Positions 13,837-16,140 of a DNA stretch of 64,000 nucleotides are shown here, piece by piece. Location: positions 27,375-91,374 of the forward strand of contig JADJZB010000006.1 of assembly GCA_016719485.1 (NCBI GenBank), given 5' to 3'. The notes beneath the pieces were generated by a model. That model saw only the letters and a list, made by a program, of their open reading frames with translations. It did not search any database and had not been told where the DNA came from. The position numbers were made by a program, and so were the translations under genes. This stretch comes from Holophagales bacterium. Its GTDB lineage: Bacteria; Acidobacteriota; Thermoanaerobaculia; UBA5066. Position 1 is the first letter of the stretch. Each line of letters opens with the position of its first letter.

Positions 13837-15759
13837 TCAGGTCGCTTCAGCGATCGGGTTGTGGTGCCGTCCTCCCTTCAGCGCGCGAAGGCCGTTCGCG
13901 ACGGCGAGCAGCTCCGCCGCTTCGTGGGCGACGACCGTCATCGTGATGCTGATGACCCCGCTGAGCGCCACCGGTATCAGGACCGCCAGCACGACGATGG
14001 AGAAGACGACGTTCTGTCGGACGATCGACCGGACGCGCCGGCCGATGAGGAAGGCTTCGTCGAGGTGCTCGAGGCTGTCAGCCATCAGGGCCACGTCCGC
14101 AGCCTCGATCGAGGCGTCGCTCCCGAGCGCTCCCATCGCGATGCCGACGTCGGCGGCGGCCAGCGCCGGCGCGTCGTTGATCCCGTCGCCGACCATCGCG
14201 AGCGGACCGGACTCCAACGAGAGCGACTGTACGGCCTTGACCTTGTCTTCGGGCCGGAGCCCCCCGCGAGCCTCGTCGATGCCGACCGCCTGTGCGACGT
14301 TTTGGGCAACGAGGGGTCGGTCGCCCGAGAGGACGACGAGCCGGGTGACGCCTGCCGCTCGAAGGCGGCGGAGCGCCGCGGCCGCTTCGGGTCTGGGCTC
14401 ATCGCGAAAGCCGAGGATTCCGAGGAGACGGCCGCCGGCGACGACGATCGCTGGCGTGATGCCCGTACCTGCAAGCTCCTCGAGCCGGTGTCCGAGACCG
14501 CCGAAGGGTGCGCCTCCGGCGTCCGGCTGGAGGATCTGCACGCGCTCGCCGTCGACGATGCCCTCGACACCCGCGCCCGGGAGCGCCCGGAACTCGCTGA
14601 CGGCACGGGACGCTTCAACGCCCTTCGCCTTGGCTGCTCGGAGAACCGCTTCGGCCAGCGGATGCTCAGAGAGCGCCTCGATGGAGGTTGCCTTCCAGAG
14701 CAGCTCCCAGGCCGTCATGCCCTCCGCGGGCTCCACGACGACGAGCTCCGGCCGCCCGCGCGTGAGCGTCCCGGTCTTGTCGAAGGCAACGGTCCGGACC
14801 CGGCCGAGTACCTCGAGGTACCGGCCGCCCTTGATCAGGATGCCGTGGCGACCTGCGGCAGACATTCCGGCCGCGAATGCCACGGGCGTCGACATCGCGA
14901 GAGCGCAGGGAGCCGCCGCGACGAGGAGGACGACGGCGTACCTCGCCCACACCGAGAAGCTCGCGCCGGTTGCGATGGGGACGAGGAGAAGGAGCACCGC
15001 GGCTCCGAGGACGAGGGGAGAGTAGATGTTGGTGAAGCGCTCGACGAGCTGCTGGCTCCGGCCCTTGGACTTCTGGGCCGTCTCGACGAGCTTCACGAGG
15101 CGGCTCACGGAGTTCTCGTCCGCGGCGGCGGTGGCGCGGAAGACGAGGCTTCCGGTCCGGTTCAGGGTGCCGGCGAAGAGTCGCTCTCCGGGCTTCTTCT
15201 CGATCGGTATGGGCTCGCCGGTGAGGCTGGACTCGTCGACGGCCGAGGAGCCCTCTTCGACGACACCGTCCGTGGGAATCGATTCGCCGGGACGGACGCG
15301 AATCCGATCCCCCCGCTGGAGGCGTGCGGCCTCCACGATGGTCTCGGTTCCATCCCGGAGGACGCTCGCCTGAGCGGGGACGAGGTCGAGGAGGCGTTCG
15401 ATCGCGCGTTTCGCCCGGTCGTACGTGAGGTGCTCGACGGATTCGGCCAGACCGTAGAGGAAGACGAGCGCAGCGGCCTCGTCCCAGAGGCCGAGCGCCG
15501 CGGCGCCGACGGCCGCCGCGGCCATGAGGGCCTCGATGCCGACCTCCCGGCAGTGGACGAGCTCCTCCCAGCCGTGGCGGCCCCAGTCCGCGCCTGAGAG
15601 GAGGATCGAGGCGAGGTAGAGCGGAACGACCCAGGCATGGCCGAATCCGAGCTGCTCCAGGGCGAGGCCGCCGGCGAGGAGAAGTCCGCCGGCGAGGACT
15701 CGCCGGACGGCGGGGGACCTCCAGAATGAGAGCGGGGCGAGGGAGGCGGAATCAGCCAT
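13837..15759 (-). CDS. heavy-metal-translocating P1B-type ATPase (no N-terminal metal-binding domain)
   Basis: ATG 15759 ([10 protein letters not shown]...); CPC motif [10 protein letters not shown], phosphorylation site [17 protein letters not shown]; in the given sequence it is read in-frame from the upstream P-II-like ORF. Confidence 0.85.
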
Positions 15760-16140
15760 GGGGGTTGTCGTCTGGGTAGCCGCAGAGGAGGACCTCGGGT
15801 CCCTCCTCGCCGGTCCGAATACCGACGACCCGGGCGAGAGGGCTGACGAAGATCTTTCCGTCGCCCGGGTTCCCTGTATGTGCCGTCTCCGGATCGTGTC
15901 AACGATCGCCTTCAGCTCGGCGTCGCGACAGTAGATCTCGATCCGCAGCTTCTCCTCGAACGGCTCCACCTCCGTTCGCTCGCCCCGGTGCGGCGCGTGC
16001 GCGCAGCGACGGCCGAATCCGCGGACCTCACTCACGCTCATTCCCGGGAAGTTCGGGACGAGACGGAGGGCATCGACGACCGGCTCCAGCATGAAGGGCT
16101 GAATGACGGCGACGACACCGTGCATCGACTCACTGTCCAT
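15753..16140 (-). pseudogene. P-II-like (GlnB fold) protein of heavy-metal efflux operons, apparent 1-nt frameshift near 15868-15880
   Basis: ggaggt RBS + ATG 16140; MHGVVAVIQPFMLEPVVDALRLVP..GMSVSEVRGFGR; after ...IVDTIRRRH the P-II C-terminus [22 protein letters not shown]...PHG-stop continues in the adjacent frame, ending in TGA overlapping the ATPase ATG (ATGGCTGA). Confidence 0.6.

Follow-up and report, generated by a model that had tools for sequence, protein, structure and literature searches.

An open reading frame (ORF) that joins two unrelated families raises the question of whether it represents a new protein architecture or two genes that have been run together. The question is posed here by a 64,000-nucleotide stretch of Holophagales bacterium DNA (assembly GCA_016719485.1, contig JADJZB010000006.1, positions 27,375 to 91,374), called the window throughout and numbered from its first letter. 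On its minus strand, 13837..16164 is a single ORF of 775 residues, counted from a GTG inside czcA, the gene for a CzcA-type RND heavy-metal pump. It combines the N-terminal part of a P-II protein with a complete P1B-type heavy-metal ATPase. As a biological architecture this fusion almost certainly does not exist. Natively the P-II and ATPase genes are separate, and the missing base that joins them most probably stems from an error of consensus or assembly at a place where co-occurring strains differ.

Two genes joined by one missing base

Read from the ATG at 16140, the same ORF encodes 767 residues (16140..13837, stop at 13839-13837), made up of the first 84 residues of the P-II protein, 43 off-frame codons, and the complete 640-residue ATPase. 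The features that matter for its interpretation are the following.

16147..16151, minus strand: GGAGG, Shine-Dalgarno-like as read from the sequence, 6 nucleotides before the P-II ATG at 16140
15889..16140, minus strand: P-II codons 1-84 (M...DTIR), in the frame that runs on into the ATPase; 93% identity to the P-II protein P0001 in this part
15886..15891, minus strand: private 1-nucleotide deletion, CCGGA-GACGG in the window, CCGGACGACGG in loci L001, L083, and L085, and CCGGAGGACGG in L084
15760..15888, minus strand: off-frame "linker" of 43 codons; no homologue covers this stretch in the junction search described below
15752..15886, minus strand: P-II codons 86-129 and TGA, in the -1 frame, ending in PHG and the stop; contains the B-loop nucleotide-binding motif and the RxR/TGE C-terminus
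15752..15759, minus strand: ATGGCTGA, with the ATPase ATG at 15759-15757 and the P-II TGA at 15754-15752, a translational-coupling geometry
13837..15759, minus strand: P1B heavy-metal ATPase, 640 residues, P1B-4-like, with APC in M4, HE in M6, and DKTGT; TIGR01525 557 bits, TIGR01512 480 bits

A preliminary description of this DNA had reported one 775-residue ORF joining a P-II N-terminus to a full ATPase, and both the ORF itself and the Pfam results confirm it. In the ORF as given, P-II (PF00543) matches residues 6-86 over profile positions 1-77 of 102, with 40.8 bits, and E1-E2_ATPase and Hydrolase follow the P-II portion. Joining the two frames gives a 129-residue protein that matches PF00543 over positions 1-102 of 102 with 75.5 bits (Pfam cut-off 25), so that the repair recovers profile positions 78-102 and gains 35 bits. 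The P-II C-terminus is therefore present in the neighboring frame, as had been proposed. The B-loop T-G-x-x-G-D-G-K-I-F and the C-terminal R-x-R-T-G-E (GIRTGEEG) are found only in that shifted frame, and the repaired protein can be aligned over its whole length with P-II proteins of solved structure (2EG1, 82.9 bits). Met 16140 is also where many of the nearest homologues begin; these, the best match among them, are 129 residues long. DUF3240, which had been named as the relevant profile, proved not to be: PF11582, with 18.2 bits (E=0.0028), falls short of its cut-off of 21, while PF00543 matches strongly. G+C content at third codon positions (GC3) over 15887-15755 fails to separate the two frames (0.72 vs 0.75) and was not used as evidence.

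The window letters at 15891-15882 are CCGGAGACGG as given, and the frame changes at ATC CGG A^G ACG GCA, in P-II codon 85. DNA alignments show a 1-nucleotide gap in the window relative to L001, L002, L003, L004, L006, L009, L083, L084, and L085, and no other locus aligned at 15886-15891 has the same gap. These alignments agree with the earlier suggestion of a single-base indel as the cause of the fusion; its site, which had been put at 15868-15880, lies about 10-20 nucleotides upstream, at 15886-15891. Among the nearest relatives the position of the missing base varies between C and G, the codons at the site being CGG ACG ACG in L001, L083, and L085, CGG AGG ACG in L084, and TGG CGG GCG in L003 and L004. 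Past the shift, 43 of 44 residues of the P-II frame agree with P0001, and three nucleotides differ from L083, two of the differences being synonymous. With no decay in this frame, either the shift arose very recently or it is not real. Metagenome contigs were scanned for the exact pattern with either allele permitted; the single contig recovered, L083, carries the intact allele.

Comparison with relatives gives the same picture of the native locus. The repaired P-II protein has 280 homologues; the 120 listed are 96-139 residues long, and among these many of the nearest have exactly 129 residues, with up to 94% identity at 100% coverage. Syntenic loci from Holophagales and Thermoanaerobaculia metagenome-assembled genomes (MAGs) and metagenomes have the order czcC-czcB-czcA-P-II-ATPase, and the longer ones go on to ResB/CcsA, a histidine kinase, and a response regulator. 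In L001, L002, L003, L004, L006, L007, L009, L083, and L085, czcA is followed by a P-II gene in a single frame (about 128-129 codons) and then by an overlapping ATPase start. The junction ATGGCTGA was read directly in L001, L002, L083, and L085, and its columns show no variation across all six aligned loci. The preliminary description had taken the native state to be two coupled genes behind czcCBA, and the syntenic loci, with separate overlapping P-II and ATPase genes and the same fusion in no orthologue, uphold that view. The overlap of the P-II TGA with the ATPase ATG stands as well, at 15759-15752 rather than at about 15753-15760.

Natural fusions were sought with a 230-residue query across the junction, made up of the P-II part (residues 1-84), the off-frame stretch of 43 codons, and ATPase residues 1-103. 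Among 5.8 billion sequences no protein spans the junction; P-II proteins cover 36-37% of the query and ATPase N-termini at most 45%. Not one of 83 homologous loci contains an intact P-II-ATPase fusion. Exact-sequence look-ups of the fusion ORF (767 and 775 residues), of CzcA, and of the 640-residue ATPase returned no record.

The way in which one base produces so long a frame has a simple explanation. The missing base at codon 85 would shift reading into the ATPase frame, which is stop-free for 43 codons, to give the 767-residue "fusion". At 69% GC the probability of 43 stop-free off-frame codons is about 0.4, as estimated from base composition. Such a stretch is therefore unremarkable, and a late one-base loss in the P-II gene tends to fuse the genes. 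Because the ATPase frame is -1 relative to that of P-II, a late loss of one base or gain of two runs on in frame.

Assembly error or recent mutation

Private indels of 1-2 nucleotides were counted in a seven-way alignment of window positions 9199-17226 (about 8 kb). The window has four, a deletion at 15888, insertions at 9839 and 9770, and a deletion at 9429, each of 1 nucleotide and all in coding sequence. Its relatives have none (L083), one (L002), two (L004), three (L084), and fifteen (L085). Three of the four window indels fall in one gene:

9366-11172, minus strand: CHASE2/HisKA/HATPase_c sensor kinase, divided into four frame pieces by private 1-nucleotide indels at 9839, 9770, and 9429

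Each kinase piece is 83-97% identical to the orthologue, which is intact with 602 residues in L002, L083, and L084, and the adjoining sigma-54 response regulator (7977-9362) is intact. Three frameshifts within 410 nucleotides, without other decay, point to consensus errors rather than to pseudogene evolution. The deletion at 9429 takes a base from GGG(T/G)GGG, a site that is variable among relatives, as is the one at 15888. At 9839 the window reads as though two haplotypes had been spliced, L004-like first and then L083-like, which differ by a compensating pair of indels. Both indel clusters are located in the stretches richest in strain-level substitutions.

Related assemblies are damaged in similar ways. 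In L084 (GCA_016705025.1, JADIYZ010000042.1; 6376-8674), a change from C5 to C4 before ATGGCTGA runs P-II into the ATPase frame; its ATPase has three further frameshifts, leaving four frame pieces, and the record has no P-II gene call. In L005 2851-3530 (Holophagales MAG MFD10097.bin.2.1), which has C8 where L002 has C6, P-II runs into the first ~95 codons of the ATPase. From there the sequence passes directly into the histidine kinase; ResB/CcsA is missing entirely and the ATPase for the most part, through deletion or misassembly. The three run-ons (window, L084, and L005) share their end frame because the ATPase lies in frame -1 relative to P-II. L085 has a fragmented ATPase, truncated calls for the kinase and the response regulator, and a copper-oxidase region called as two short genes.

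Several observations weigh against an error in the window. At the deletion site the longest run is GG or GGG at best, which is short for a typical homopolymer miscall. In the rest of the window, where overlapping same-strand ORFs were screened by GC3 and Pfam was run on about 20 of the other same-strand ORF junctions, no further split domains were found; the window is thus not uniformly error-ridden, and its known indels are clustered. The P-II gene has window-private substitutions, such as P20 (Q in the four nearest loci, P in no aligned homologue), which could represent early decay.

The preliminary description had left the source of the indel as sequencing error or mutation, and both remain the explanations worth weighing, with error clearly the favored one and a real, very recent mutation in the sampled strain a good deal less probable. 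Such a mutation would leave P-II non-functional, without its B-loop, strand beta-4, and C-terminus, and would place the ATPase under the P-II ribosome-binding site with a 127-residue cytoplasmic N-terminal extension (84 P-II residues and 43 junk residues). In favor of mutation, P1B ATPases tolerate cytoplasmic N-terminal domains. The lack of a long homopolymer and the private P20 also speak for mutation, as does the location of the deletion in a hotspot of strain-level variation with probable recombination (ATPase 80-83% identical to that of L002 and L004, czcA and ResB at least 95%). However, a mutation does not readily account for the three further private indels in the neighboring kinase, all of whose pieces are conserved and which evolution explains poorly, nor for the like damage at other places in related assemblies. 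The P-II frame past the shift shows no decay, and neither the metagenome pattern scan nor the junction search of 5.8 billion sequences found the deletion allele elsewhere. Consensus error at a strain-variable position accounts for these findings better.

Explanations in which the run-on is itself functional fare worse. A genuinely evolved fusion, in which a regulatory domain derived from P-II forms the N-terminus of a P1B ATPase, agrees with the open, in-frame ORF as given, but its P-II portion would end at profile position 77 of 102, without the most conserved motif, and its 43-residue joint is an off-frame reading of a P-II C-terminus that is still conserved. With no database protein across the junction and no intact fusion in the 83 loci, this interpretation is effectively refuted, and we regard it as very improbable. 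Programmed recoding, by -1 ribosomal frameshifting or transcriptional slippage, would yield full-length P-II beside the fusion, and a -1 shift at CGG-AGA would indeed restore the P-II frame. Programmed frameshift sites are conserved, however, and here every relative aligned at the site encodes codon 85 in frame, so that the site is private to the window; ATC CGG AGA CGG contains neither an X XXY YYZ slippery heptamer nor a long homopolymer. Lacking both slippery site and conservation, programmed frameshifting was rejected as the least probable of the explanations considered. A biological origin of the run-ons in all three assemblies, with a slippage-prone coupling site switching subpopulations between two forms, is likewise improbable, if slightly less so than a true fusion. 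Were it true, slippage would turn the regulator on and off naturally, the two states being "P-II plus ATPase" and an ATPase that is extended at its N-terminus and made without P-II.

The native operon and its products

Upstream of the P-II gene, three further genes complete the native unit:

20468..21727, minus strand: czcC-like outer-membrane factor, 419 residues; Pfam OEP E=9.1e-40; 94.5% identical to the L002 orthologue
19236..20471, minus strand: czcB-like membrane-fusion protein, 411 residues; Pfam HlyD_D23 E=9.8e-48; 95.9% identical to the L002 orthologue
16130..19234, minus strand: czcA-like RND pump, 1034 residues; ACR_tran 982.9 bits over profile positions 2-1020 of 1021; 98.7% identical to the L002 orthologue

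By its gene positions, the predicted native unit czcC-czcB-czcA-P-II-ATPase is a five-gene, tightly overlapped operon. The czcC and czcB genes overlap by 4 nucleotides, czcB and czcA are separated by 1, the czcA stop (16132-16130) reaches 11 nucleotides into the P-II ORF, and P-II and ATPase overlap by 8. The ATPase gene has no Shine-Dalgarno-like sequence of its own, which makes coupling by termination and reinitiation likely; with its ATG 5 nucleotides before the P-II TGA in ATGGCTGA, its translation is probably coupled to P-II termination. A promoter and terminator scan of 13400-22600 found no promoter, and terminators at chance level only.

An RND (czcA-like) gene lies within 1 kb on the same strand in 66 of the 83 homologous loci, from many phyla, and a P1B ATPase lies within 1 kb in 24 of the 83. 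In an Acidobacteria MAG, ACB1 (L008, 5593-6387), a tandem pair of P-II paralogues separates the RND gene from the ATPase, and a locus from Nitrospinae (L018, 4099-6342) has the order RND-ATPase-P-II. The RND/P-II/ATPase association therefore recurs with variable gene order.

One relative, L083, matches the window across 9.76 kb with 98.0% identity. A divergent block, 13837-16040, comprises the 3' half of the P-II gene and the ATPase gene. Here the ATPase protein is 80-83% identical to those of L002 and L004 and at least 96% identical, piece by piece, to those of L001, L003, L083, and L084 (99.5% over 631 residues for L003), while czcA and ResB/CcsA on either side are 95-99% identical in all loci compared. 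The pattern suggests that ATPase alleles fall into two classes, which recombination has exchanged among members of a single species-level population.

The ATPase has the phosphorylation site FDKTGTLT, and its sequence fits the P1B-4 class, not the CPC type to which the preliminary description had assigned it; its membrane motif is APC. Among solved structures it is closest to sCoaT of Sulfitobacter sp. NAS14-1 (PDB 7QBZ/7QC0; PMC8880997), with 377.7 bits for 7QBZ, followed by ZntA (4UMV) with 355.4 bits. In M4, VAAAPCALA aligns with VAASPCALA of sCoaT (S325-P-C); in M6, the H and E of HEAAE align with H657 and E658, and the G and T positions of HEGxT differ. The features of the class have been described (PMC8880997), as have APC variants of the IB-4 group (PMC3922081). 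Like sCoaT, the window ATPase belongs to the same length class, has eight predicted helices (MA, MB, and M1-M6), and lacks a classical heavy-metal-binding domain: Pfam finds no N-terminal HMA match, and the alignment to sCoaT, which covers MA and MB, begins at residue 18. The two differ in that sCoaT has SPC, HEGST, and a GG kink in MB, whereas the window ATPase has APC, HEAAE, and SG. Membership in P1B-2 (ZntA/CadA-type) is not supported, with APC in place of CPC, AHEA where ZntA has ADTG (the Asp of M6), and VL(A) where it has LK(G) (the Lys of M5); the ZntA equivalog models give 396-439 bits against cut-offs of 1005-1240.

A P1B-4 ATPase is also associated with czcCBA in Cupriavidus metallidurans, where CzcP belongs to the czc determinant and czcP deletion lowers zinc resistance by a third (PMC10127602). 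The window ATPase resembles CzcP in its type and its genetic association with czcCBA, and in both cases a cytoplasm-to-periplasm step would feed the RND pump. The czcP gene lies downstream with its own CzcR-dependent promoter and a transposon between it and the core czc genes, and its product has SPC; the window ATPase is instead encoded by the last cistron of the operon, overlaps the P-II gene, and has APC.

For the P-II protein, a trimeric, ferredoxin-like fold is predicted from sequence alignment to solved trimers. Its B-loop and C-terminal nucleotide-binding elements are 86-100% conserved in the 120 homologues listed. The T-loop is Cys/His-rich (RRCAHAPHRGE in the subclade that includes the window), and the subclade has a 12-residue C-terminal extension. 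Homologues in Thiobacillus and in Deltaproteobacteria MAGs are 40-49% identical. The protein does not belong to the GlnB/GlnK subfamily: its T-loop, RRCAHAPHRGERTE, has no Tyr at the aligned position, and with the NCBIfam equivalogs of the subfamily it scores 79.5 bits (cut-off 202) and 78 bits (cut-off 181).

Its closest counterpart by context is PII-NG, a P-II clade that clusters with czcABC and was defined by Sant'Anna et al. 2009, as summarized in PMC7726332. Geobacter sulfurreducens GSU2134-2137 is an example, and a metal-sensing role has been proposed only (PMC7726332). The window P-II gene likewise stands beside a CzcA-type heavy-metal RND pump, in the same operon, and its PF00543 protein keeps the B-loop and RxR/TGE. 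In the Geobacter operon the PII-NG gene comes first, whereas in the window the P-II gene follows czcA and precedes a P1B-4-like ATPase with an 8-nucleotide overlap. The clade was described for Proteobacteria, whereas the host of the window belongs to Acidobacteriota, with Holophagales and Thermoanaerobaculia MAG relatives, and the likeness is one of neighborhood and motifs.

Other features of the window deserve brief mention. Just upstream of czcC, an ORF of 100 residues (21959-22258, minus strand) is 92% identical to its L002 counterpart, is present also in L084, and matches no Pfam family. Directly downstream of the metal-efflux operon, 11325-13628 (minus strand) encodes a 767-residue protein with ResB-like and CcsA (Cytochrom_C_asm) regions, a fused system II cytochrome c biogenesis protein whose position is kept in all longer syntenic loci. 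A defense- or mobile-looking insert (23301-26222, 25799-26344, and 28609-29251, all minus strand), absent from the syntenic L002 locus, encodes an AEP primase domain of the TOTE system together with a ResIII/DEAD helicase (E=1e-95). It also encodes a PIN-like protein (DUF3368) and a toxin-antitoxin pair of the HepT/nucleotidyltransferase type. On the plus strand, one stop-free frame at 55300-58275 contains DUF4126 (residues 24-199) and DUF3300 (residues 474-677), and may represent two same-frame genes or one long protein.

Proposed function and significance

Small P-II trimers encoded together with a transporter offer a working analogy for the native operon. GlnK with AmtB and SbtB with SbtA are P-II-type regulators co-encoded with the membrane transporter that they bind. 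As in those systems, a small P-II gene is apparently co-transcribed here with transporter genes, and the nucleotide-binding motifs are kept; the analogy is limited by the T-loop, which carries a modified Tyr in GlnB/GlnK and is Cys/His-rich, without that Tyr, in the window. SbtB is covered in PMC9974498. In the model that we propose, the ATPase would export a divalent metal of the Zn/Co/Cd class from cytoplasm to periplasm, and CzcCBA would then expel it across the outer membrane. The P-II trimer would bind ATP or ADP, and perhaps metal through the Cys and His residues of its T-loop, and would probably tune either pump or both through direct contact, in the way that GlnK acts on AmtB.

Neither in annotation nor in counts should the 775-residue "P-II-ATPase fusion" be treated as a new domain architecture, and the same stretch holds a falsely broken kinase. 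The operon itself is of an ordinary metal-efflux kind. Its arrangement had been called notable in its own right, but the associations of P-II with czc and of P1B-4 with czc are both already published (PMC7726332, PMC10127602). The tight coupling of P-II and ATPase in Acidobacteriota adds a modest new detail. Loci with czcCBA, P-II, and a P1B-4-like ATPase with overlapping start and stop recur in Holophagales and Thermoanaerobaculia, with looser versions in other phyla, and would be a reasonable place to test the function of PII-NG proteins.

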